Part shown: positions 19,901 to 46,979 of the stretch, piece by piece
Layout of the letters: each line of letters starts with the position of its first letter
Position numbering within the stretch: the stretch's first letter is position 1
IMG/VR virus record: IMGVR_UViG_3300044701_003572
Coordinates: 22,379-86,378 of that record
Reading direction: 5' to 3' (one strand)
Length of the DNA: 64,000 nucleotides
Source of the DNA: a virus
Program-made: the position numbers and the translations under genes
The notes under the pieces: generated by a model
Seen by the model: only the letters and a program-made list of their open reading frames with translations
Told to the model about the DNA's origin: nothing
Databases searched by the model: none

Positions 19901-22900
19901 GCTCATTAGAAACTTTAAAGGAATCTGCGGCTAGATCTTGAGACACTACCCAGTAATAACTATCGATACTGCCAATACCAGAAGGCAAACTAGATCCAGT
20001 ACCACTGGAATTAAATTTCAGCATAGTACCTGCCGTTAGACCGTGGGCTACTTTATTAAATACTCCAGGAGTTCCCGGAGTAACAGTATAGGTTACAAGA
20101 CTACTGGGAGTAGAATAGGGTTGGGAAATATACGCACCAACATCAACATAATTATAATTTTCACGAAGCTGGGTCAAGGCCAACCCAAACGGAATCATAT
20201 ATACAGTACCTGACAGAGTGATAACATCTGCAGATGTGTTCACCGGTGTTCCGCCGTCAACAGCAGAGATAGTAAATGTATAATCACTAGGAACAGATGT
20301 TATATAATATTCAGTAGCGAAGTCCGGATCAACATCCGCATCGATTGATTCTGGAACTGTGGCTCCAGAAGTGGCCTTAATAATTTTAACCTTATATCCT
20401 ATTTGCTGTCTATGTGCAATATCTGTAGTAATCACTCCCGGATTAGCGATCGAAATTCCTGTTATGGTAAATGTATCCCCGTCGTAGGCTGAATCGTATG
20501 CTGAAAAATCTAAAACACGATAGATGTCATTGGAGTCTGCTAGTTTAAGAGCTGTACTAGGGCGTGTAGCAACATCTACAACATCTCCTGTGAGCACAAC
20601 ATAACTATTCTGTCTGATAGTACATATCGCACCATTAGGAACACTGAACTGCAATCCTCCACTGCTGCTGATATTTAATTTGGTAAACTTAGTAGCTGCA
20701 TTGACAATCTCCACAGTGGATATTGAATATTTTACCAATGCACCGTTGTGATTTATTTCTAATTCGGATCCGTTTAACGGATTATAATCTTCATAATATC
20801 CGTAGATCGCAGTGCTAGCTTTTCGATTACTATACTGACTAGGAGTAGTAACCACAGTAAATCTCTGTGACAGTTTGTGGTATAAACTAACAGGAGTAGG
20901 TACTTCTAGTGGATCTGCTCCTTCAGCAACTAGAGCAAAGTTACCGTGAGAGCTAGATCCTCCGATCGATCTAATTTGTCCGCCGTTGATTGAATAATAG
21001 GATACATGACAGTAATAGGTAAACATCGATACCGCTTCAGTTAATCCACCGTTAGTAGCGATTAAACCATAACCTAAGTCGTTGACCTGTGTAAAGTCAT
21101 TGCTTAACATAGATCTATTACCAGGCATCAGCACTTCGTATATTCTTTCGTAGTTCAGTGTACCAGAACCCGTGCTAGTTATTTCTACCGGGTCACCGTC
21201 CGGCTCGTCTGAAAATCTAAATGTATTTGCAGTTTTACCACCTAACAATACATAATAGTCCTGACCGGCGGTGATACCGCTAGGTAAGACTCCGCCTGCT
21301 CCTAATGCGAATCGTATAGTCGCTCCACTTTGTAATCCATGACCTGTTTTATTGACAGTGGCTATATTTGAAGGATTAGTAAAAGTGAATGCCAGTGCAC
21401 CATAAGTTAAAGAAAATGGAGTTGTTTCGTCTAATTCAAACTGTGCAGTTGATCCTGCCGGGTCAAAAATATACTGTCTGAGATAATTAATTCTATATAC
21501 TTCGTCGTTGACGATAAATGAACAAGGCAGCTGCGGGGGTCTAATTAGCCCTGAGATCGCCAATCTTGTAGAAGTTATAGCATTAGTGATACGGAATTGT
21601 AGGTTACCGGTAAATCCGTCAACAAACATACCTCCACCGAATTTTTTGTAGCCGGTGCTTTTGCTGAATACAGCACCTTCTTGTGCGTACGGCGACTTAG
21701 CAAGAATTTGTCCTTCCGGGTCAAGTACCAACGCAAAACCACCATGGCCTTGCATAGTCATTGCTCTAAGTATTACAGCATCGTTACACAGGAATACATC
21801 GAGTTCGTCATTATTTTTCGGTAAATTACTAGGAGAATTTTCAATTATATCTAGAAGAACATCTATTAATATACCTACAGCCCCACCTTGAGGTGTAACA
21901 GTTCCTCCGCTACCTGGTACATAAGCAGTAAATCCAGCGCCATTTACACTGGTAGTAAGATTAAAATCTGTATATAAATCTATTCTAGTCGGTTGATTGG
22001 CGACAGTTTTCACATAATAGGTATTGCCATTGAGATTGGTCATGCTGCCGCCGGCTATTCCGGAAATGTCTATTTTTTCTTTGTCTGCATAACCGTGTGC
22101 TGCGGTAAAGGTTAATCTCACGGGATTGGCTTGAGATGCTGCGCTGATACTTCTTGGCAGAGCACCTGCTCCCCGTTCTGCTTGATACGCAGCATCGGCA
22201 ATCTGTGTAGCGGTGCTATAGATCTGTGACTCGTCTAATTCTATATTTTGTATAATTCGTTGAACTAGGTACTCTAATCTTTCAATAGCAGCTAGTGTTT
22301 CATCTAGCTGACTACTTATAGCTAGAGCTGCACTTTCATTATATGGGTCTCTGTACTTCAATGCAGCAGAAACAGTTCGATTATAACCTCCGTATTTCAA
22401 ATCGTATATCATTGAATCGATGATTAATCCTACATCTCGTTTACAGATTTCACTATTGTAGGAGAATGAACTAGTAAAGGGTGCTAGGTTTTCTTCTATT
22501 TGATAATCGATCCAAGATACTACTTCTGTTTGTAAAAATAATTTATTGCGGCTTAATAGTTCTGCAGCACTATTAAAAGACCCTTTATTGTTTACTATAG
22601 GATAGATAGGACTGTCTGAATTTTCCAAATAATGATAACCGAACAGTCTGTCTGATGTTACAAGACTGTCAATGCTTCTATCTCTTCTAAAATTTATTAA
22701 TGCCCATGGGCTAGTGCTAAATCCTAATTTAGGTCTTATTATAGTTCTTCTAAATTCATCACCGATAACAGCAACGTTTTGTGGAATTTTTATAGGTAAG
22801 TTTTCTTCATAAATACCGCTTTCTATGAACACAGATATCTGTACATTTCTAGTGATATCGCCATAGGCTATTCTTTCACCTTCTTGAAACGAACCGTAAA

Positions 22901-36908: not shown

Positions 36909-37395
36909 CTTTCTCTTCTTTCTCGTCTGGGAAACACAATGATTCCATTGTTTTATAATGTTCGTAGGCTTTTTTGAGAGCTTCAAACTTTTCAAGTTTT
37001 TCTGGATCGGGAACCAGTATAGCTAATCTTTGCTCCATCTTTGAGATAAAATCTTTAAGACTAACATTACCAATTTTAAGATCGCCACCTTCTTTTATAT
37101 TAACACCATCAGTGTCTATGTTTACGGTGGGTGCATAATTTTGAGTCCAAGTGTAACCACTAGTCCCGTTCGTTGTGTATACTCCCCCGCCACCTCCACT
37201 AATTGTATAAGTTGAGGATGGAAAAGTTATAGTCGATGAAGTCATATTTAAATCATCCAAGGTGATAGTTTGCACACCATCCAGTTCCAGAGCTGCACCA
37301 ACAGCACCAATGTCAAGATCCAAAGTTATTGTATCAGTGACTGTGATGCTGTCAGTTTCGCTACCGCTAAGGATGTAATTATCCTTATCGTCCAT
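36898..37395 (-). CDS. hypothetical protein
   Basis: Thr/Gly-rich N-terminal part; C-terminal LKKAYEHYK. Confidence 0.6.
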   Translation of the reverse strand: MDDKDNYILSGSETDSITVTDTITLDLDIGAVGAALELDGVQTITLDDLNMTSSTITFPSSTYTISGGGGGVYTTNGTSGYTWTQNYAPTVNIDTDGVNIKEGGDLKIGNVSLKDFISKMEQRLAILVPDPEKLEKFEALKKAYEHYKTMESLCFPDEKEEKDEC

Positions 37396-37396
37396 A

Positions 37397-37597
37397 TTAG
37401 GCCTTTGTTACTTTTGCTTCTTTGCGAGCGTTCTTTTCTGCAGTGATTTCGTTACGGCGAGCCTTTACACTCTTAGCCACTTCTTGTAGGGCTTTACGAG
37501 CGCGAGTACCTGCTGCCGAGTTACCTGCTGTAAACTTTGCATCTTCTGCTAAAAATGTTTCGAAGTCTGCTTTTAGTTGTTCTACTGTATTTGACAT
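37397..37597 (-). CDS. histone H1-like (Hc1-type) small basic protein
   Basis: GNSAAGTRARKALQEVAK motif; AAGGA RBS. Confidence 0.65.
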   Translation of the reverse strand: MSNTVEQLKADFETFLAEDAKFTAGNSAAGTRARKALQEVAKSVKARRNEITAEKNARKEAKVTKA

Positions 37598-37640
37598 AAT
37601 TGTTTCCTTTAAGTTATGTTATTCTACTTATTCTAGAATT

Positions 37641-37753
37641 TGGTGTGGTCGGTAGGTTTCGAACCTACAAAGGCTGCGAGTTATACTCAGCGCCCCGTCC
37701 CCATTCTCGACTATGAGTCGAGCGGGAGGTCTGCCTATTCCACTCACGACCAC
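37641..37753 (-). tRNA. atypical 113-nt tRNA-like RNA (Leu-like body, CAU anticodon hairpin, encoded CCA)
   Basis: Acceptor GTGGTCG/CGACCAC + A + CCA; T-arm GTAGG-TTCGAAA-CCTAC; D-loop GG; hairpin CTCGA-CTCATAG-TCGAG; long variable arm. Confidence 0.75.
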
Positions 37754-37759
37754 AAGTAT

Positions 37760-37788
37760 ATTATATAACCTTAATCTTAAAAATACAA
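37760..37788 (-). promoter_or_regulatory. sigma70-type promoter of the tRNA-like gene
   Basis: TTGTAT-N17-TATAAT; the -10 element ends 6 nt before the RNA 5' G. Confidence 0.65.
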
Positions 37789-37816
37789 TATATGATAGGT
37801 TAAATAATAGCAGTTT

Positions 37817-38800
37817 ATGACACACGACTTTCAAAAAATACCTTTTCAAAATATAATTAAATTTGGACAGAGAACTATGTTAGAAAGACCTTTGTTCTCT
37901 GTAAGTTGGATATTAGGACGATTTTGTAATTATAGTTGTTCATATTGCTGGCCGTATGCAAGATCGGATAGAATTGATCACCAATCACTAGACATCTATA
38001 AAAATACAGTAGACGAAATTAAAAGACAAGCAAGACAGAATGGATTTACAGAGTTTCATTGGAGCTTCAGTGGTGGCGAACCAACGGCCTATAAACAACT
38101 ATTAGATCTAGCAAGACATTTAGAAAATGATTTAGAAAGTCCGTATCAGAGCATACATATGACTACCAATTTAAGTCCGGGAAGCAAATGGTGGAAAAAT
38201 TGGTCGAATACTACTGCTAATTTGCAGAGAAGAAGTATTACAGCAAGCTATCATTCTGAGTTCGCTAAAGAACAGGAATTTGGTGATAAATGCCTTCAGC
38301 TTATGTACGACAACGTATATGTTACAATCAATCAAGTAATGGTGCCGGATCAATTTTTTCAATTATACGAACGCTGTGAAAGACTGCATAAAAGAGGAAT
38401 CAATGTAACTCTGAAGCCTCAGAGTGATCCTACGGCCAGCGGCGTTGTAGATGGATATACCAAGGAAATGATTAACCTGATGCAGACAGGTTTTCCTCAG
38501 CAGGCCAACGCCGAAGAATTATATCAAATTGTACTTTATGATACTAATGATAAAGAGTATTTGTTTGATCAGGCAGAAAGATTTAACGCTTATGATTTTA
38601 ATAAGTTTCAAGGATGGCATTGTAATTCTGGATACCAAAGTGTTATAATTCGCAGCGATGAAGTAAAAAGATCCTATAGTTGTCATGATCAACTGTTAGG
38701 AACTTTAACAGAAGGATTTAATTTGTTTAATAAACCTCGACGCTGCATTACACCTAGTTGTGTAAGTTCAGCTGATAGTAAAGTACCAAAATGCAAATAG
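37817..38800 (+). CDS. radical SAM protein (C-terminal twitch-like Cys)
   Basis: CNYSCSYC, SGGEP, GWHCNSG...C...C. Confidence 0.9.
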   Translation: MTHDFQKIPFQNIIKFGQRTMLERPLFSVSWILGRFCNYSCSYCWPYARSDRIDHQSLDIYKNTVDEIKRQARQNGFTEFHWSFSGGEPTAYKQLLDLARHLENDLESPYQSIHMTTNLSPGSKWWKNWSNTTANLQRRSITASYHSEFAKEQEFGDKCLQLMYDNVYVTINQVMVPDQFFQLYERCERLHKRGINVTLKPQSDPTASGVVDGYTKEMINLMQTGFPQQANAEELYQIVLYDTNDKEYLFDQAERFNAYDFNKFQGWHCNSGYQSVIIRSDEVKRSYSCHDQLLGTLTEGFNLFNKPRRCITPSCVSSADSKVPKCK

Positions 38801-39399
38801 ATACAGAACATTTACATTACTGGATGCAGGCTATCCGGCAAAGCCCGAATCCTATGCGAACCATGGATGCATTCTGGAGAGGACAACTTAAAAGCAAAGA
38901 ATGGTTAATCGAAAATTTACGTAAGCACGTAAACAAATTTGTAACAGTAGATATTCACGGAGGATGGGTTGGAGTATTAGCTAGTATGTTGTTCCAGAGC
39001 GAAATTCCTATCATTAATATTCGTAGTATTGATATTGATCCAACGTGCGAACCTATCGCTGTTAATATGAATAAGATTGAAGAAATGGTAGGGAAGTTTC
39101 GAGCAGTCACTGCCGATATGTGTGTTATTAGCAGTAATGCAGATGTTATCATTAATACCAGCTGTGAACATATTACACAGTACGATTATGATACGTGGCT
39201 AAATGGTATTCCATCTAGCTCATTGCTTGTTTTACAAAGTAATAATTATCAAATTCCGGAGCACGTTCGAACAGCAAAAACATTAGATGAATTTAAAGAA
39301 CAATCTAATATTAACATATTGTGGTCCGGAGAACTAGAATTGCCCTTATACAACCGATATATGATCATTGGAAGAAAGAATGTTACCTTATCCACATAA
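38791..39399 (+). CDS. class I SAM-dependent methyltransferase-like protein
   Basis: IHGGWVG, SIDID, TADM and INTSCEH motifs. Confidence 0.65.
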   Translation: MQIDTEHLHYWMQAIRQSPNPMRTMDAFWRGQLKSKEWLIENLRKHVNKFVTVDIHGGWVGVLASMLFQSEIPIINIRSIDIDPTCEPIAVNMNKIEEMVGKFRAVTADMCVISSNADVIINTSCEHITQYDYDTWLNGIPSSSLLVLQSNNYQIPEHVRTAKTLDEFKEQSNINILWSGELELPLYNRYMIIGRKNVTLST

Positions 39400-40480
39400 T
39401 ATAAAATCAGTTCATATCGAATTAACTGACAAATGTCAAGCAGCCTGTCCTATGTGTTCGAGAAACGAGTTCGGCGGCAAAGAACGCAGTCATATTAAAA
39501 ATACTGAAATTACTTTAGAACAGTTTGTTCAATGGTTCCCTAGAGAATTCTTAATGAAACTTGATAGTTTTTATGCTTGTGGAAATAACGGAGACCCTTT
39601 ACTGGCTAAAGATTGTTTAGAAATATTCGAATATCTGGCTAATAACACTACTGATGATTGTAGACTTGCCATTCACACTAACGGAAGTTTGAGAAATAAA
39701 GAGTGGTGGACGAATCTTGCTAGAGTTCTGGGTAATAAAGGTTTGGTAGTTTTTGCTATCGATGGATTTAAAGGTCAGCATGAAATGTATAGGCGAAACA
39801 CTAGTTGGGATAAAATTATTGAGAATGCTAAGACATTTATAGCTGCTGGCGGCAAAGCAAGATCAGATACTTTGTTATTCAAACACAACGAAGATGAGGC
39901 AGAAAATCTAAAAGAATATCTACTTAGCATCGGGTTTGAAGAAGTTATTCTAAAACCAACACAAAGGTTTCACGGATTACCTCAGTTCCCAGTAAAAGAT
40001 CAATATGGTAACGTGGAATACTATATCGAAGGACCTACGAAACCGCAGTATAAAGAATACATTATGCAACCAAACATGGTTAAGTTAGTAGAAAAAGAAA
40101 CTTATAATGCTCTAATTAAAAATTCTGAAATTGATCCGAAGTGTCAAACTGGTCGAGACTTATTTGTTAATACTTTTGGTAATGTGTGGCCCTGCTGTTT
40201 TGTACAGGCATTAAATGTCACTGACGGACTTGACTGGCAAGGTGCCGAATATGTTATTAGGGAAAGATTAAGACTATCCGCTGTAGATGTAGCAGATGAT
40301 ATTGGTATTCCAAATTTGCACGGAACTAATATCGTTGATATTTTGAATTCTTGCGGTTGGGGCGAAAGTCTTCCTAAACATTATACCACTGATAAAAAAT
40401 TAGTTTGTGTTAAAAGTTGTTCTACAAACTTACGAAAGTTGGTTGAAGATAATAACAAACCTCAAATACAATACTGGTAA
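39380..40480 (+). CDS. radical SAM/SPASM protein
   Basis: CQAACPMC, GDP, HTNGS, PCC, CVKSC. Confidence 0.9.
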   Translation: MLPYPHNIKSVHIELTDKCQAACPMCSRNEFGGKERSHIKNTEITLEQFVQWFPREFLMKLDSFYACGNNGDPLLAKDCLEIFEYLANNTTDDCRLAIHTNGSLRNKEWWTNLARVLGNKGLVVFAIDGFKGQHEMYRRNTSWDKIIENAKTFIAAGGKARSDTLLFKHNEDEAENLKEYLLSIGFEEVILKPTQRFHGLPQFPVKDQYGNVEYYIEGPTKPQYKEYIMQPNMVKLVEKETYNALIKNSEIDPKCQTGRDLFVNTFGNVWPCCFVQALNVTDGLDWQGAEYVIRERLRLSAVDVADDIGIPNLHGTNIVDILNSCGWGESLPKHYTTDKKLVCVKSCSTNLRKLVEDNNKPQIQYW

Positions 40481-41142
40481 TCTAAAATAACACCTGCTCG
40501 GGTAATTGATTCAAAAGCACCTGTAAATGTATCTGGAGTCAGCGTGTTTAAATAAACTTCCTTTTCGCTGATTGCTTTGAAACCTGTAATTGTATTATTT
40601 TTTACACCTGCATTGATCAATGTCATAATCGGTGTGTACGCCAATTGCTTCCAATCATAGTCGCCTTCGATAATTTTAATTTTAAGAAAAGGATCTTGTT
40701 CGTTGTATCTCGGTAAAAGAACACGCACATTAAGATGTATTCTAGTTCGAGGTCCCCAATTTGCCGCAACGTGTATTTTGCCTGTGTTCATATACCATAG
40801 TTGTCCGTCGGCAGGCAGATGGTATAATTTGTTGTCAGTTATATCAACTAAAAAACTGTAAGGATTGGTAATAATAGCAAGATGTATTCGATCATCTGGA
40901 TCAGCGTGTGCAGTATATGACTCCGCAGATTCTAGTTTAAGAAGTCTAGCCTGCCCAATATTTCCTAAAGACTTTAATACCTCACCTAACGGAGTTGATT
41001 CAAACTCCGGCAAAATTATCCAAGGATCATGAAAGAAAGATCCAGAAGGTTTATTCAAGTCTAGACGTTTTTCAAATACCAAATCATCAACTTGTTGTAT
41101 AATGGGTTCTATAGAAAATTTTTGGTCGAGTTTAGTAAGCAT
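40462..41142 (-). CDS. Fe(II)/2OG oxygenase-like protein (Asp/Asn beta-hydroxylase-like)
   Basis: HAD...IHL...IHVAANWG..TRIHL. Confidence 0.65.
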   Translation of the reverse strand: MLTKLDQKFSIEPIIQQVDDLVFEKRLDLNKPSGSFFHDPWIILPEFESTPLGEVLKSLGNIGQARLLKLESAESYTAHADPDDRIHLAIITNPYSFLVDITDNKLYHLPADGQLWYMNTGKIHVAANWGPRTRIHLNVRVLLPRYNEQDPFLKIKIIEGDYDWKQLAYTPIMTLINAGVKNNTITGFKAISEKEVYLNTLTPDTFTGAFESITRAGVILDYQYCI

Positions 41143-41152
41143 AATTATACTT

Positions 41153-41875
41153 ATGAAAGTAGATATACCGTTTGATAATAATTGGAAAAGTGTTGCTATT
41201 GCGGTAAGTGGCGGCGCTGATAGCGCATTACTGACATTTCTAGTTTGTCAAACAGTAACAGAAAGAAATATTAATCCTTTTACTGTACACGTTATTAATA
41301 ACATTAGATGCTGGAAGACTAAGCCCTGGCAACAAAGCGATTTTAAAAAAGTTTATAATTGGTTAGTTCAACGATTTCCAAAAATTAATTTTCAAATACA
41401 CACAAATTTCGTACCTCCTGAACTAGAATGGGCCAATAAAGGTCCTAGCATTATCGATGAATACGGTAAGTTAGTCAGTGGAGACACACTAGAATTAAGA
41501 TCCTTTGCAGAATTTGTATGCATCAATCAGGATGTTGATGCATATTTCAATGGCGTTACACGAAATCCAAAAGGCGTTGATTTTCAGGGAATGCATACTA
41601 GAGATATAGAACCTACCGAAGAAAATCGTCATCTTAAACTAATGATACATATGGGAAAACTGGTATCGCATCCTTTTAGATTTTTAGATAAAAGTTGGAT
41701 AATTAAAAAGTATTATGAATTAGAGCTAGAGGATCTACTTAATACCACTAGAAGCTGCGAAGGAACTGTTCCAGGTTTAGATTATACTAATTATAAACCT
41801 TATCAATATGTTCCGGTGTGTGGAGAATGTTTCTGGTGTAAGGAACGAGAGTGGGGAATTAAATGTCAAGATTAA
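41153..41875 (+). CDS. QueC-like PP-loop ATPase
   Basis: SGGADS PP-loop; TRSC...CGECFWCKER Zn site; start MKVDIP. Confidence 0.65.
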   Translation: MKVDIPFDNNWKSVAIAVSGGADSALLTFLVCQTVTERNINPFTVHVINNIRCWKTKPWQQSDFKKVYNWLVQRFPKINFQIHTNFVPPELEWANKGPSIIDEYGKLVSGDTLELRSFAEFVCINQDVDAYFNGVTRNPKGVDFQGMHTRDIEPTEENRHLKLMIHMGKLVSHPFRFLDKSWIIKKYYELELEDLLNTTRSCEGTVPGLDYTNYKPYQYVPVCGECFWCKEREWGIKCQD

Positions 41876-42495
41876 TTACATTTGGGTGTTCATATACATT
41901 TGGACATGGTTTACCCGACTGTCTAGATCAAGAAGTTGATGGTTGTAGAATACCTCCAGAAACTGCTAGTAATCTAGGTTGGCCAGTTATTCTAGCAAAC
42001 AAAATGAATAGAACACTGATAAACGTGTCTAGGCCAGGATCTAGTAATTTAGAAATACTATATTCTATATTAAGTTTTGATTTTCAATCAACCGATCAAA
42101 TTGTTGTTATGTGGTCACATAACATTCGAGATATTATCTTTACTGAGGATGATATGAACCCATTATTACGTTTACGACTAGGACCTTGGAGTAACGAACG
42201 ATATGCACAGCAATGGGTATTAAAGGTAACTGAAAGAGATTATTGTTTAAAGACCTGGATATATATTCAACATTCTGATTTATTTTTTGAAAAGAAAAAT
42301 ATTAAATGGCTTCATTATCCGGCAGCGCCTCACGAATTATTAGAATTTAAATTTAATTTTATCAATTCTGATCATATTTGTTTCGACGGATTTAAAATAG
42401 TCGATGATGCTGAAGATAATAAACATCCAGGTTTGAAAACCCAACAATTAATAGCCGACAAGATTTACAACCAATTGTATGAACAATCAAAGTAA
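41863..42495 (+). CDS. SGNH/GDSL-like hydrolase or acyltransferase
   Basis: FGCSYT, GSSN and DNKHPG motifs. Confidence 0.6.
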   Translation: MSRLITFGCSYTFGHGLPDCLDQEVDGCRIPPETASNLGWPVILANKMNRTLINVSRPGSSNLEILYSILSFDFQSTDQIVVMWSHNIRDIIFTEDDMNPLLRLRLGPWSNERYAQQWVLKVTERDYCLKTWIYIQHSDLFFEKKNIKWLHYPAAPHELLEFKFNFINSDHICFDGFKIVDDAEDNKHPGLKTQQLIADKIYNQLYEQSK

Positions 42496-43744
42496 AACAT
42501 TTTGTATACATCCTTTCACAGGATTGGCAACACGAGAAGACGGTGCAGTCAAGGTCTGCTGCCGTAGTCAGCCTGTGGGTTGGATACAAGAACAGAGCAT
42601 AGAAGATATTTGGAACAGCGAAACTATATGTGAAGTTCGCAGGCAAGTGCTCTGCGGTGAGCGTCCTGAAGTCTGCAAACCCTGTTTTGATCTAGAAGAT
42701 CAAGGTGTAGAAAGTCTGCGCCAACGACACATCAATGGCGTCATACCTGAATCAAGAATTAATTTATATCCCAACGCACTAGATAGCCTACGTGAAGATT
42801 ACACAATGCCGTTTGAATTTCCTACAATGGAAATTAAACTTAATAATCTCTGTAATTTAAAATGCAGAATGTGCAATCCGTTAGATAGTACTAGCTGGAA
42901 AGACTGGGATTATGTCAAACCTTTTTATGAAAAAGAAAATAACTACCTTGTTCCCACAGTGGCCAAGTTGGTGCGTACTCCCGGACAGTACATTGGTCCT
43001 TTTGATGACACTGAAAACTGGTGGGTTAGTTTCGAAAAACTTTTGCCATATTTTCGTAGAGTAGAGTTTGCGGGAGGAGAACCTTTGATGGATCCGCAGC
43101 ACTATAAGATCTTAGATATGTTAAAGCCTTACGCTAAAAACATAGAAATCAAGTATGCTACTAACGGCACTACGTTAGGTATAAGTCGAGATAGAACTAT
43201 TCACGACTACTGGCCATATTTTAAATCTGTAGCAGTGAATGTTAGTCTTGATGGTATACATAGTGTATATGATTATATTCGTACCAATAGCAACTTTGCA
43301 GAAGTCGAAAAGAACATCAAAGAAATACAGACAATACCAAATGTCAGTAGAGTAGTAGGGGCATTTACTGCACAGGCTGGAAATATTTTACAGGCAGCAG
43401 AGTGTATCGATTATTTTATCAATGAAATGAACATAGTATTCTACAGCCATCGTGTAAGTTATCCTAATGTACTATCGGCCCAAGTACTACCGCAGGAATT
43501 AAAAGACTTAGCCATCAGCAGATTGCAGACAGTATCTAACAGAATTTGTACATTCCCTAACATAGAAAAATATCCTATTCTAGAAAAAATTACCCAACAA
43601 CAAATTAAAGATAATATCAACTATCTGCGAGCCAGGGATCAAAGTCATTTATGGCAAGATTTTTTAGAATTTAATCGTAAATTAGATACTACAAGAAATC
43701 AAAATTTATTAGAGGCTGTACCGGAGTTTACTGCATATGTATAA
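42479..43744 (+). CDS. radical SAM protein with N-terminal twitch/SPASM-like domain
   Basis: FCIHPF..CC..CKPC, then CNLKCRMC and AGGEP. Confidence 0.9.
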   Translation: MNNQSKTFCIHPFTGLATREDGAVKVCCRSQPVGWIQEQSIEDIWNSETICEVRRQVLCGERPEVCKPCFDLEDQGVESLRQRHINGVIPESRINLYPNALDSLREDYTMPFEFPTMEIKLNNLCNLKCRMCNPLDSTSWKDWDYVKPFYEKENNYLVPTVAKLVRTPGQYIGPFDDTENWWVSFEKLLPYFRRVEFAGGEPLMDPQHYKILDMLKPYAKNIEIKYATNGTTLGISRDRTIHDYWPYFKSVAVNVSLDGIHSVYDYIRTNSNFAEVEKNIKEIQTIPNVSRVVGAFTAQAGNILQAAECIDYFINEMNIVFYSHRVSYPNVLSAQVLPQELKDLAISRLQTVSNRICTFPNIEKYPILEKITQQQIKDNINYLRARDQSHLWQDFLEFNRKLDTTRNQNLLEAVPEFTAYV

Positions 43745-44636
43745 GGTTACTTCAGCTTGGCCTCACCAAGATCAGCTTAAAGTAGAATGGAATCTAGGTA
43801 AACGCTGTAACTACGATTGCAGTTATTGTCCTTCTGAGATACACGATAATGTTAGTCCCCATACAGATATCAATCTTTTAGAGAGAGCAGTGGATAGACT
43901 CTGCGAAATAGGCAAGCCTTTACGCATCAGTTTAACGGGTGGCGAACCTTGCGTTCACCCCGACATAGAAGATCTTTTAGATTATTTTAAGAGAAAAGAC
44001 ATATTTTGGGTCAACTTAACTACTAATGGAACTAGGGGTTATCGTTGGTATTTAGATCATGAAATGTTTTACAATCACATAGTATTCAGTCTGCATTTTG
44101 AACAAGACTGGCATAGAATTTTTGATACAATATTAAAATATTATGATACTACCGAGAGAGATTTTTTTGTGAATGTAATGGCACATCACAAGTATATGCA
44201 TAATGTCAAGACTGTAGTCAAGAAGTTTGACGAATTAGGAATTAAATATGCCGTTCGTAGAATACGATGGACCGAAGGCGATCATAATGTATTCGATGAT
44301 CTTAAATACGACGGACAAGACCTACAGTGGATATTGAATAAAGACGCTACAGCTAAACCTAATTGCCGTATAGACGATGAAAAAATCATTCATTCTAACG
44401 ATGTAATCAAACAACATTTAAATCAATTTAAAGGGTGGCGGTGCAATGCTGGACTTGAAAGCCTAATGATTAATTGGGACGGTGATGTACATCGTGCAAC
44501 CTGTCGAGTTGGCGGAAGTTTGGGCAACATCTACCAAGGTACTTTTGCAGTCCCGCAACAGCCCATCGAGTGTACTAGAGATTGGTGTACCTGTGCAGCA
44601 GATATACCTCTGACGAAGGTGAAGACGATTGAATAA
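43737..44636 (+). CDS. radical SAM protein
   Basis: CNYDCSYC, TGGEP, GWRCNAG...C..C.C. Confidence 0.9.
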   Translation: MYKVTSAWPHQDQLKVEWNLGKRCNYDCSYCPSEIHDNVSPHTDINLLERAVDRLCEIGKPLRISLTGGEPCVHPDIEDLLDYFKRKDIFWVNLTTNGTRGYRWYLDHEMFYNHIVFSLHFEQDWHRIFDTILKYYDTTERDFFVNVMAHHKYMHNVKTVVKKFDELGIKYAVRRIRWTEGDHNVFDDLKYDGQDLQWILNKDATAKPNCRIDDEKIIHSNDVIKQHLNQFKGWRCNAGLESLMINWDGDVHRATCRVGGSLGNIYQGTFAVPQQPIECTRDWCTCAADIPLTKVKTIE

Positions 44637-45597
44637 TTTTCTTAGTGAGATTACTTTCTGGTTGACACCAACAACTTAATTTAGAGCAAGTAGTTGACCT
44701 AAGAGCTGGTTTGAAATTTTCTATAAAATCTTTATCTCTAATATTATATTGAAAATCTAAATTATAAAGATTGTTTCCGCAAGCGCCTGTTAAATTTCCA
44801 TTTTTGTCTATGAACAGACTATCAATGCCTAGGTTACAGTCCCAACCATAGAAATTATTGATCTTCTTCAGTATGATTTCGTTGTTTTTAACATTAATCT
44901 TACTGCCGTCTTCGGTAACTACACTAGTTTTTAACAAAGTATGTTTGTTATTGATTAGGAACCAAAAAGGATTAGCCTGACGCAGTCTATGTTTCTTTAG
45001 TATTTCTTTTTGTTCTTCGTTGTAATTTATAGTACTATGATAGATCTCTTGTATATCTATACCCCATCTACGTTGGCTTTTCTTAAGGCGTTTTACTAAA
45101 TCCATGCATTTGTCCCAATGATTAGGATCCATTAATACCAGACCTGTGATAATTACCCGTTGGTCATATAGACAATCGGCAACTTTGATAAAGTGATCTA
45201 CATCCACACTCTCATGATGACAACTAAGTATAACCTTATCCATATACTTGCCATATTGTTCCCACCAGCGTAGTGTTCTAGATCCGTTAGAACTCATACT
45301 GAATATACAATCAAAGTTATCTTTAAAATGTTGTATGAAGCGTCCGAACTCTGGCCACATAGTGGGTTCGCCGCCTATGATGTGTAATTCAAAAGTTTTT
45401 TTATCTAGATTTTTAATGTAGTAATTTAATAAGTGTTCTAAATTTTTAACAAACAAATCATATTCGGGCCACCGATGTGTGCCTTCATTGCTACCTGGAA
45501 AACAATACCAACATTTGTAATTACAGGTATTGCCTAGCATGATTTCAATCCGTAATTTATTTTCAGGCCAACGGTGTTTAACTTCTACAATTTTCAT
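44575..45597 (-). CDS. radical SAM protein
   Basis: CNYKCWYC, GGEP, GWDCNLG...C...CWC. Confidence 0.9.
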   Translation of the reverse strand: MKIVEVKHRWPENKLRIEIMLGNTCNYKCWYCFPGSNEGTHRWPEYDLFVKNLEHLLNYYIKNLDKKTFELHIIGGEPTMWPEFGRFIQHFKDNFDCIFSMSSNGSRTLRWWEQYGKYMDKVILSCHHESVDVDHFIKVADCLYDQRVIITGLVLMDPNHWDKCMDLVKRLKKSQRRWGIDIQEIYHSTINYNEEQKEILKKHRLRQANPFWFLINNKHTLLKTSVVTEDGSKINVKNNEIILKKINNFYGWDCNLGIDSLFIDKNGNLTGACGNNLYNLDFQYNIRDKDFIENFKPALRSTTCSKLSCWCQPESNLTKKIIQSSSPSSEVYLLHRYTNL

Positions 45598-46979
45598 ACT
45601 AGATGTGACAGCTCTGGAAATATTGATTGAAAGCTTGTGCCTCTAATCTCATCTAGATTATTGATATATTCTTTAAATGCAGGTAATTGATCTGTGTGAT
45701 CTTCTGCATCCATAAAATCTAATACAGCTTGCCAACGACGCCAACCGTAGGGATTGTCCTTCCAATAGTCTTCGTCTTGCCGGTAATTTTCGTGTAACCA
45801 GTTAGATAGCTCTGCGAATTTTCTGCGAACTTCGACTTTGTCTTCGGAGGGTAGACAATGTATGCTTAAAAATGTTGGTATGTACAATAGGTGCATATTG
45901 AAGATCCCACCACCCATCTGTACATTGCCCGGTACTAGGCCCAGATTAATTTTCTTAAAATTTTGTTGTACTTTCCAACGAGCAAAGTCTGGCAAGTGTT
46001 TGATATTCAATATCTGTATAGCAGTGGCTATACTAACTTGTACGTTGTCTGGTGTTCGATCTAACTTGTGTAGATTTTCTACAATAGTTGCCCACTCACT
46101 AGGATATCTAATATACCAATTGCGTTGATCTGTAGCATCTAAACTAACAGCAAATTTAACTCTATTAAAAGGCTTCCATAGTTCTAGAATTTCATCATCT
46201 AATAAGAGTGCATTACTATTATAACGAATTAAAATTTGATCAGCATAACCCTGTCTAATGATTTCTTCCAAGAAAAGTTTATGCTCCTTGATCATTAAGG
46301 GTTCACCACCTGCGAAATACACCTGTTTTAGATTAGGTATCTGAGCATACATCTCTTTCCAGAAGTCCGGATTCTCATACCAAGTGTTGTTAAATTTATC
46401 ACTGTTCCATTCCATCTGTTCAGCAACAATAGGTATGGTAGTTTTTTTCATTAATTTTTCGTAATCTTGTACCCAACGACTGCTGTCGTGAGGCGAACAC
46501 ATTACACATTTTAGATTACAGGTGTGTCCTAATCTTAAATCTAGATAAGTGAGTTTATCCGGTATCGTTCCGTCTTTTTTAGTTTGACGAACTAGCTCTT
46601 CTAAATCGATACCGTCATTCATCCACGTATAAGTTTCCCAGAGCCTTTTACTAATTACACCTTGATCTTCTTCACTTATACATTTACCACAACTGGCAGG
46701 TATTTTACCTTCCAACATAGTTAGACGTACATCTCTCATGTATTGATTATTCCACGCCTCTAAAGGTTTACTAATACCAAAATTTGCAGGTACGCCCTTT
46801 TCATTCTTTACTAAACCTACACCATGATCTGTGCCGGCACCGCTGGCATTGGCTGAACAACAAAGCCGCATATCACCATTAGGCCTTGTGGCAAAATGAA
46901 TCCAAGGCAATATACAAAAGGTGCGACTGCCTGTTTTTTGTTCGAGAAGTTGGTAAAACTTTTTTTTATCGTTATTCAT
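45594..46979 (-). CDS. radical SAM protein with N-terminal twitch/SPASM-like domain
   Basis: FCILPW..CC..CGKC, then CNLKCVMC and AGGEP. Confidence 0.9.
   Translation of the reverse strand: MNNDKKKFYQLLEQKTGSRTFCILPWIHFATRPNGDMRLCCSANASGAGTDHGVGLVKNEKGVPANFGISKPLEAWNNQYMRDVRLTMLEGKIPASCGKCISEEDQGVISKRLWETYTWMNDGIDLEELVRQTKKDGTIPDKLTYLDLRLGHTCNLKCVMCSPHDSSRWVQDYEKLMKKTTIPIVAEQMEWNSDKFNNTWYENPDFWKEMYAQIPNLKQVYFAGGEPLMIKEHKLFLEEIIRQGYADQILIRYNSNALLLDDEILELWKPFNRVKFAVSLDATDQRNWYIRYPSEWATIVENLHKLDRTPDNVQVSIATAIQILNIKHLPDFARWKVQQNFKKINLGLVPGNVQMGGGIFNMHLLYIPTFLSIHCLPSEDKVEVRRKFAELSNWLHENYRQDEDYWKDNPYGWRRWQAVLDFMDAEDHTDQLPAFKEYINNLDEIRGTSFQSIFPELSHLV

Follow-up and report, generated by a model that had tools for sequence, protein, structure and literature searches.

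A family of phage RNAs with a body like that of a class II tRNA-Leu and a hypervariable arm in place of the anticodon arm

The stretch of DNA analysed here (hereafter the window) comprises 64,000 nucleotides (nt), positions 22,379 to 86,378 of the 86,378-base IMG/VR virus record IMGVR_UViG_3300044701_003572, for which CheckV estimates a completeness of 24%; the metagenome runs that contain DNA of this phage come from freshwater or lake samples. On its minus strand, at positions 37641-37753, the window encodes a 113-nt tRNA-shaped RNA, with the first base (G1) at 37753 and the terminal A of the CCA at 37641, which we regard as very likely a selected, non-decoding mimic of class II tRNA-Leu. The parts of this RNA are the following (window coordinates):

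37641..37753, minus strand: the tRNA-like RNA gene, 113 nt, recognised from its sequence, with 31.5 bits against the Rfam family RF00005 and 108.9 bits against the family model R1, on which 100 distinct relatives score 67-115 bits
37747..37753, minus strand: 5' strand of the acceptor stem, GUGGUCG, pairing with 37645-37651; paired in 100% of 100 relatives, with compensatory changes
37727..37746, minus strand: U8 and the D-arm, with the Leu-type loop GGAAUAGGCAGAC and an imperfect stem (sequence and alignment)
37700..37726, minus strand: extended "anticodon" arm as folded, with a 4-bp base CCCG/UGGG, an AA bulge, a 5-bp stem CUCGA/UCGAG and a heptaloop
37711..37717, minus strand: the heptaloop CUCAUAG, with CAU at the anticodon position; C-Y-Y-AUAG in 13 of 108 distinct variants
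37670..37696, minus strand: variable arm of 27 nt, 11 bp with two bulges and an AUA triloop (fold and covariation)
37652..37668, minus strand: T-arm GUAGG-UUCGAAA-CCUAC, 100% paired in relatives
37641..37651, minus strand: the acceptor stem's 3' strand, CGACCAC, followed by A73 and the encoded CCA; A73 and CC invariant in all 54 sequences found by BLAST

This sequence bears out the initial annotation, which had described a 113-nt tRNA-like RNA with a 7-bp acceptor stem, A73, CCA, a T-arm, a Leu-like D-loop and an imperfect D-stem, and the extended anticodon arm and oversized variable arm that it had also proposed are recovered in the fold, the former as a 9-bp bulged arm (CCCG-[CUCGA-CUCAUAG-UCGAG]-AA-UGGG in full) and the latter as a 27-nt hairpin within a variable region of ~31 nt. 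The minimum free energy of the 113-nt RNA is -45 kcal/mol (z = -3.0, with 1 of 200 shuffles equally stable), and its 5' and 3' termini pair as the acceptor stem of a tRNA, which leaves ACCA free beyond it.

Genes of this kind in phage genomes are overlooked by standard tRNA finders and default Rfam scans. ARAGORN, which had been suggested as a check, called no tRNA gene and no transfer-messenger RNA (tmRNA) in the window, and left the element unreported in two further loci (L237 and L238). Rfam found no tRNA on the whole window at the gathering threshold, nor on a 401-nt slice at E-values up to 10 with default filters, and the 113-nt RNA matched RF00005 with 31.5 bits (E 2.3e-5, cut-off 29) when searched as a 119-nt slice, as well as in a search of its own genome. 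In the resulting alignment, the anticodon arm is CUCGA-CUCAUAG-UCGAG, and the variable region contains an insert of 35 nt. The RNA thus passes the gathering cut-off of RF00005 and escapes recognition by ARAGORN, and the family does not conserve what a canonical tRNA has directly below position 26, a 5-bp anticodon stem with a 7-nt loop, U33 and a usable anticodon.

Relatives were gathered by several routes. The protein of the divergent radical-SAM (rSAM) gene next to the RNA was used as query and gave 80 loci (the best 80 of 136 confirmed relatives), an exact 21-base pattern spanning T-arm and acceptor gave 46, and a degenerate family pattern gave at least 118 more stretches, on contigs whose lengths reach 399,796 bases. 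When the 113-nt RNA served as query, BLAST located the element in 104 of 126 loci, yielding 54 distinct full elements, and a regular-expression pass over 235 loci yielded 108 distinct elements of 95-119 nt, carried on at least 204 phage DNA fragments. Among 50,697 deposited phage records, by contrast, there was no 1-kb blastn match for the locus; the RNA itself produced by blastn only chance T-arm matches of ~30 nt or less, and the rSAM protein matched by tblastn only Campylobacter phage CP21, at 23% identity. In a collection of 185,579 genomes that represent bacterial and archaeal species, the family pattern was not found. Full-text literature searches returned no description of this tRNA-mimic RNA family: "anticodon-less" refers, in the excerpts of PMC13434031, to the cleavage products of a Schlafen-like nuclease and not to this RNA family, which is likewise unmentioned in excerpts of PMC12619734 and PMC7824862. 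An overlapping open reading frame (ORF) of 73 codons is not conserved, and the RNA gene is not coding, since the lengths of the elements differ by non-multiples of three.

The body of the RNA is under strong purifying selection, and its structure lies far beyond chance. In the alignment of 100 distinct relatives to R1, 92.1% of the cells are paired and the covariation score reaches 0.262 (vs. 0.101 for shuffled alignments, none of 500 of which reaches the observed score, and at most 0.055 for slid partners). Being fitted to the model, this set leans towards it, and the result from the 54 sequences aligned with MAFFT agrees (0.176 vs. 0.083 shuffled, 0 of 500; slid controls at most 0.086), with the acceptor and T stems 100% paired. 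Across the 100 relatives, pair 3-70 is GC in 62, AU in 35 and GU in 3, pair 5-68 is UA in 58, AU in 37, CG in 4 and UG in 1, and pair 50-64 of the T stem is UA in 87 and CG in 13. All four pairs at the base of the long arm change on both sides, as do three of the five pairs in the outer stem of the variable arm (95.9% paired), and the inner hairpin covaries. In 89 of the 100, the bases of the third D-stem pair do not match, which makes the imperfect D-stem a trait of the family. Two hairpins stand between the D and T arms in 107 of the 108 variants, and the variable arm is conserved across the family at 8-11 bp with a 3-nt loop, mostly N-U-A.

This covariation effectively refutes a decaying pseudo-tRNA without function, an idea that the silence of ARAGORN and the marginal Rfam score might encourage and that the initial annotation had tied to homologs lacking compensatory changes. 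Such changes are found in four helices, promoter and body are kept across 108 distinct variants, and the RNA persists in two relatives that are 94-100% complete and carry different genes beside it, so that we give decay practically no credence.

The "anticodon arm" behaves differently from the core, with a mean pairwise identity of 0.448 (vs. 0.745 for the core). It ranges from 4 bp with a CUUG cap up to 14 bp, with a distal arm of 4-27 nt, and the 108 variants are distributed over these arm classes:

GNRA tetraloop on CGUU/AACG with a UC/CAC internal loop: 32 of 108 variants
UAGUA/GAAC (loop-E-like) internal loop: 14 of 108 variants
Pyrimidine-rich helices with CUA, GAAA or U5 caps: 14 of 108 variants
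C-Y-Y-AUAG heptaloop, the type of the window: 13 of 108 variants
GUAACRAAC loop: 9 of 108 variants
Stubs of 4-6 bp with CUUG, UUCG or UUUG caps: 9 of 108 variants
Other: 17 of 108 variants

The GUAAC(A/G)AAC arm loop, 9-10 nt long, stands on different stems in loci L151, L173, L180, L192, L197, L202 and L062, and the UAGUA/GAAC internal loop resembles a sarcin-ricin or loop-E motif. In 12 pairs of variants the cores are at least 93% identical and the arms less than 50% identical: for instance, L114, whose RNA is identical to that of the window, has a counterpart in L085 with a U5-capped helix on the same CCCG/UGGGG base. Arms have therefore been replaced on a constant chassis, and may constitute a set of exchangeable functional modules. 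The arm is not conserved as an anticodon arm, and the family has no conserved anticodon, including none of the Leu type (NAG or YAA). The term tRNA mimic, already used in the initial annotation, fits a family that keeps the tRNA body in this way.

Within the clade of the window, six different covarying 5-bp stems carry the heptaloop, whose sequence is CUCAUAG in 4 of the 13 variants, CCCAUAG in 8 and CCUAUAG in 1, and this loop is therefore constrained there. Only 4 of the 13 have U33 and the other 9 have C33, and the stem-loop stands on four extra covarying pairs and a 2-nt bulge; we infer that the geometry of the window arm would be incompatible with the fixed anticodon-to-CCA distance of the ribosome. 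Moreover, ordinary tRNAs number 28-31 in the near-complete relatives, where they form clusters away from the mimic and include two each for Leu, Ser and Met, and related phages also carry tRNA-Ile(UAU); the mimic is therefore not filling a decoding gap. In the 28-tRNA cluster of one of these relatives (G002), ARAGORN reports at L236:13287-13378, on the minus strand, a 92-nt "tRNA-Ile(UAU)" with a very long variable region.

Two explanations would give the arm of the window a role in decoding or in imitating a decoder. In one, the RNA of this clade is a working adaptor or anticodon stem-loop mimic, with a CAU loop for MetRS, TilS, an anticodon nuclease or pairing with AUG. The retention of C-Y-Y-AUAG on six covarying 5-bp stems in 13 variants speaks for it, as does the loop of the window itself, which has U33, CAU and A37 and is aligned by Rfam as an anticodon loop. 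We nevertheless consider it very unlikely, given the four extra pairs and 2-nt bulge below the stem-loop, C33 in 9 of 13 variants, the U5-capped helix borne instead by a relative with a 95% identical core, the two tRNA-Met and the tRNA-Ile(UAU) that related phages already have, and a TilS-like gene that is found in relatives with GNRA-capped RNAs and is absent from G001 and G002, both of which bear the RNA. A specific pairing of TilS with the CAU loop was rejected on this same distribution of the TilS-like gene.

In the other, put forward by the initial annotation, the gene is an intron-containing tRNA-Leu(GAG) in which removal of 12 nt after U33 produces a 101-nt decoder. The excision does leave CU-GAG-AA between CCCG and UGGG, but the would-be anticodon merely mirrors the first two pairs of the stem: by stem complementarity, 8 of the 13 variants would have NAG (Leu) and the other 5 would have NGG (Pro, C33). 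The remaining stem has 4 covarying pairs rather than 5, no features of a bulge-helix-bulge or group I intron are evident by eye in the 12-nt insert, and the arms of 95 of the 108 variants are unrelated to this one, among them stubs of 4-6 bp that offer nothing to excise. No splice joint was seen in RNA-library contigs, which leave the 5' two-thirds of the RNA uncovered. The family has no insert at a fixed site whose removal restores a 7-nt loop and a 5-bp stem, and a spliced tRNA was rejected as barely credible.

Beyond the arm, the family has a marked leucine character. All 54 BLAST-found sequences share A73, G18G19, the two A that precede them, the D-loop A that follows G19, U48, U54-U55-C56 and the CC of the CCA (whose final A is G in one sequence), and A58 is present in at least 90%. 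While R1 gives 86.2 and 84.6 bits to two distant relatives of the window RNA, the first of the canonical tRNAs tested is T4 tRNA-Leu, at 40.3 bits; the tRNA-Leu(UAA) and tRNA-Leu(UAG) of G002 score 36.2 and 32.7 bits, and the other 26 ARAGORN-listed tRNAs of its cluster at most 27 bits or go unreported. The family is in this respect closer to tRNA-Leu than to other tRNAs, the one exception being T5 tRNA-His (34.5 bits).

According to section 12 of Giege and Eriani (2023, PMC9976931), E. coli leucyl-tRNA synthetase (LeuRS) needs A73, A15-U48, G18G19, A20a and tertiary pairs that link D-loop and T-loop, and tRNA-Leu variants without anticodon and variable arms are still active with this enzyme. 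In its sequence, the family carries the bacterial LeuRS identity set (A73, A15-U48, G18G19, the D-loop A and the D/T pairs). With this set kept and the anticodon lost, it retains what LeuRS needs and has shed what LeuRS ignores, a pattern of conservation that matches anticodon-independent recognition by LeuRS, and the RNA is probably leucylated by the LeuRS of the host.

Binding to EF-Tu was estimated from the three specificity pairs of the T stem, with the values in Table 2 of Schrader and Uhlenbeck (2011, PMC3239215, as excerpted). The T-stem sum is +0.7 kcal/mol for the mimic, vs. -0.1 and -0.6 kcal/mol for the tRNA-Leu(UAA) and tRNA-Leu(UAG) of a relative, a modest weakening, and the mimic is probably kept away from the ribosome.

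These features bring in the main rival to a decoy, a dedicated leucine carrier charged by LeuRS, from which leucine would pass to a non-ribosomal acceptor through the L/F-transferase/N-degron route of the host or an unrecognised phage transferase or tailoring pathway. It would make sense of the full LeuRS identity set, of A73 and CCA (A73 and CC invariant in 54 of 54), of the first rank given by R1 to tRNA-Leu, and of the weak-type A51-U63 pair found in 100 of 100 variants, the same logic being described for Staphylococcus cell-wall tRNA-Gly in the excerpts of PMC3239215; the sigma70-type promoter and a hint of Pseudomonadota further suggest a host group with L/F-transferase, an enzyme that the E. 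coli and Caulobacter controls have. However, five related records, of which two are 94-100% complete, yielded no gene of the FemAB type or for L/F-transferase, the RNA has no conserved neighbour, the rSAM island being unlinked in distant relatives, and a carrier leaves the variability of the arm and the swaps of its modules unexplained. On balance we consider this explanation unlikely.

Upstream of G1, the RNA has a promoter of its own:

37783..37788, minus strand: -35 element TTGTAT (family consensus TTGAC-), with T, T and G at -35 to -33 in the family
37760..37765, minus strand: -10 element TATAAT, 6 nt before G1, at a fixed distance in the family

In the window, TTGTAT, a 17-nt spacer, TATAAT and 6 nt precede G1 at 37753. 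A consensus scan did not list this -35 element, only 3 of whose 6 bases match. In the 108 distinct upstream 40-mers, T, T and G occupy -35 to -33 in 96, 97 and 91%, and -12 to -7 reads TATAAT in 65 and TATACT in 33, always at the same distance. With the spacing fixed in this way, the primary transcript should start at the mature 5' end, as had been proposed together with the suggestion that RNase P may not be needed; the conserved spacing agrees with both. No terminator-like site was found in 37300-38100, and we infer that the 3' end of the RNA is made by processing.

Downstream of the CCA, two further features were recorded:

37621..37639, minus strand: small A/U-rich hairpin with an ATAAGTA-type loop, not a terminator; its stems covary and its loop is kept in the GTGGTCG clade
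37397..37597, minus strand: Lys/Ala-rich ORF of 66 aa, 43 nt after CCA; a homologue lies downstream in 122 of the 178 fragments with enough flank

The hairpin could mark a site of processing or belong to a promoter specific to the phage, perhaps a late one. The 66-aa ORF has no match in Pfam or NCBIfam, and the family of the downstream ORF differs between clades. In metatranscriptome runs X16 and X17, which belong to different studies (lake and marine), one contig each covers this gene alone (37393-37585), whereas in runs X18 and X19 contigs of relatives (88-95% alike) bridge the downstream gene and the 3' part of the RNA, reaching 37674 or 37672, a weak hint of co-transcription.

Such an arrangement might also be expected of a natural "tRNA scaffold" or cis-acting leader, that is, a stable 5' module that displays the payload of its arm or controls the processing or stability of the downstream mRNA. 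The bridging contigs, an ORF at close range after the CCA in nearly all contexts, the absence of a terminator, the change of downstream genes between clades, the several arm modules whose loops are conserved while their stems covary, and the exchange of arms on an unchanged chassis would all suit this role. Yet in 9 of the 108 variants the arm is a capped stub of 4-6 bp, without payload, and a role in processing or stability would not demand A73, a Leu-type D-loop or a long conserved variable arm; nor can contigs from RNA libraries prove transcripts. We regard a scaffold or leader as distinctly improbable.

On the other side of the RNA lies the gene whose protein served as query:

37817..38800, plus strand: divergent radical-SAM gene (PF04055, E 1.3e-11)

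Of the 185 fragments whose upstream flank measures at least 1,200 nt, 163 have an rSAM homologue near the RNA, as a rule divergent and at a distance of 28-82 nt, a count drawn from a sample biased towards this adjacency, 80 of the loci having been fetched with the rSAM protein itself. Ten loci have neither usual neighbour. In G001 (100% complete), the RNA adjoins HemE and HemC and the nearest rSAM homologue (52% identical) is 82 kb off; in G002 (94% complete), it adjoins an AdoMet decarboxylase and a DctP-type protein, and the rSAM paralogues are only 26-38% identical. Metabolic genes thus lie right beside the RNA in both (L238:7085-9195 and L237:6513-7908, respectively), and the RNA appears to be located at the border of variable islands of metabolic genes.

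The island of the window (37817-46979) holds six radical-SAM proteins (two with an N-terminal SPASM-type domain), a possible 2-oxoglutarate-type hydroxylase and a PP-loop ATPase. Pfam and NCBIfam give the neighbours of the RNA no more than generic radical-SAM or PP-loop labels, with sub-threshold NCBIfam matches to many maturase families. The PP-loop ATPase gene is TilS-like by a weak match (E 5e-4); a TilS-like gene is present in G003-G005 and absent from G001 and G002, which keep the RNA, and the RNAs of two of its carriers, G003 and G004, have GNRA caps. The island is accordingly not a conserved partner of the RNA, because its genes are unlinked or absent in G001 and G002 and its TilS-like gene is found in relatives with GNRA-capped RNAs, and the earlier proposal of a substrate or aminoacyl donor for the adjacent island has no support from linkage, the RNA of these two near-complete relatives having unrelated genes beside it.

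The rSAM tree is likewise incongruent with arm type: CAUAG needs 9 changes on it, at least 3 of them forced by supported branches, in counts that include L125, L133 and L096, which branch at ~5 substitutions per site and are probably non-orthologous ORFs. Because of this incongruence, the tree could not date the CAU arm. The rSAM of L005, which has a CAU arm, is almost identical to those of L220 and L157, which have a GNRA arm, and recombination therefore separates the rSAM gene and the RNA. Recombination breakpoints lie in or near the divergent promoter region (window 37754-37816).

Taken together, these observations make it very likely that the RNA is a selected, non-decoding mimic of class II tRNA-Leu. 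Extending this to a mimic that acts as a decoy gives the statement that we favour as a whole, although only tentatively, and the added step, competition for a host factor that binds class II tRNAs, is itself at best tentative. The proposed sequence of events is as follows. A sigma70-type promoter of its own would start the RNA at its first base, with no RNase P step at the 5' end, and host enzymes would trim the 3' side to CCA. The kept LeuRS elements (A73, A15-U48, G18G19, the D-loop A and the contacts between D- and T-loops) would lead to probable leucylation, and the weak-type A51-U63 pair and the missing anticodon would exclude the RNA from translation. It could then act in trans, by way of its acceptor end, its elbow and the long variable arm, as a decoy or competitor for a host factor that binds class II tRNAs, the leading candidate for which would be a defence nuclease or toxin directed at tRNAs; in an arm that is sealed and changes fast, an anticodon-directed nuclease would find nothing to cut.

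Several points weigh against this reading. An anticodon-nuclease decoy has no obvious need of an invariant A73, which a charged carrier would explain better, and the estimated weakening of EF-Tu binding, 0.8-1.3 kcal/mol, is within the 1.3 kcal/mol outlier limit of PMC3239215, as excerpted. Conserved arm loops on covarying stems (CYCAUAG on 6, GUAACRAAC on several) indicate that in some lineages the arm may have a function and not be a mere sealed stub. The ORF start 20-61 nt past the CCA in nearly all contexts, with no terminator between, fits a cis role too, and the RNA-library contigs, from four runs and available as assemblies, give no cover at 37678-37758 and no information on ends. No gene for FemAB, a class Ia aminoacyl-tRNA synthetase, a CCA-adding enzyme, SmpB, L/F-transferase, peptidyl-tRNA hydrolase or TROVE was found in G000-G004 (0 of 5 each), and the sole hint of a host is the HemE of a relative, at most 61% identical to proteins of Pseudomonadota. 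The regular expression behind the 108-variant set fixes the T-arm, A73 and CC, for which reason invariance is claimed from the 54 BLAST-found sequences only. Finally, the expression, 3' processing and charging of the RNA are predictions from its sequence.

It is tempting to speculate further that giant phages keep a leucyl-RNA excluded from the ribosome, with a tRNA-Leu chassis pared down to the parts read by LeuRS and tRNA-processing enzymes, whose former anticodon arm has become an exchangeable module (CAU mimic, loop-E, GUAAC or tetraloop stub), and which feeds non-ribosomal transfer of leucine or serves as an uncleavable class II decoy against tRNA-directed immunity, with the swapped arm tuning it to a host factor. 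We hold this combined scheme to be somewhat unlikely; if true, viral tRNA mimics would gain a new functional class. Charging would make the RNA a viral carrier of aminoacyl groups that works outside translation, and a decoy role would make it a new counter, based on RNA, to defences that target tRNAs.

Among known RNAs, class II tRNA-Leu (RF00005) shares with the mimic the 7-bp acceptor stem, A73, CCA, a D-loop with G18G19 and A15, U48, the T-arm and a long variable arm. The mimic differs in having no conserved anticodon loop, its place being taken by an arm of 4-14 bp with tetraloop or other caps, in a variable arm of 8-11 bp (vs. 3-4 bp in the T4 tRNA-Leu fold and, by eye, in the tRNA-Leu sequences of a relative), in the D-stem mismatch, in a transcription start at G1, and in being a solitary gene away from tRNA clusters. 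It can be read from the variants that the acceptor end, the elbow and the long variable arm are needed and that the anticodon arm is free. The non-proteinogenic tRNA-Gly of Staphylococcus shares weak EF-Tu binding through the T stem (excerpts of PMC3239215), for which the mimic has the weak-type A51-U63; unlike the mimic, it keeps its anticodon and has a FemXAB transferase, whereas no FemAB was found in G000-G004.

The tRNA-like domain of tmRNA is, in the excerpts of PMC3929946, a module of acceptor, T-arm and D-loop that is charged without an anticodon. A tmRNA was rejected here, there being no G3:U70, no mRNA-like domain, no ARAGORN tmRNA and no SmpB in G000-G004. A Y RNA or YrlA, whose two ends pair into a Ro-binding helix and whose partner is Ro60 (TROVE), was rejected as well, as the ends of the RNA form an acceptor stem with a free ACCA and no TROVE was found in the same five records. 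In the engineered "tRNA scaffold", processing and stability come from the tRNA body, and any structured insert can stand in for the anticodon arm; this scaffold was designed in the laboratory, whereas the phage arrangement is natural and its insert can be a bare stub.

Closer parallels are found among phages. The initial annotation compared the RNA with the species 1 and 2 RNAs of T4 (rnaC and rnaD), which are also stable small phage RNAs, rnaC having a T-arm-like hairpin and a tRNA-like 3' part. The comparison stands as an analogy. Homology was rejected, as R1 gives 19.0 bits to rnaC and nothing to rnaD; both lie in the tRNA cluster and neither matches RF00005 at E-values up to 1. The closest described analogue is T5 RNA1 (NC_005859 30501-30644; L239:702-845), annotated as "tRNA-like stable RNA with unknown functions", in which a Leu-type D-loop GGAAUUGGUAGAC, a T-arm and a long variable hairpin are combined with a 47-nt structured insert that replaces the anticodon loop. 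It scores 24 bits on RF00005, below the cut-off, and differs from the mimic in its position inside the T5 tRNA cluster, not behind a +1 promoter of its own, in having no encoded CCA, and in an R1 score of 17.4 bits over part of the model, below many ordinary tRNAs. T5 RNA1 is therefore not a member of the family and has only the design in common with it. The reference records of T4 and T5 annotate these tRNA-like stable RNAs without an assigned function, for which a family of 108 variants offers a better handle, and the reading of the mimic as a leucyl-RNA with an exchangeable arm, if true, might explain the stable RNAs of T5 and T4 as well.

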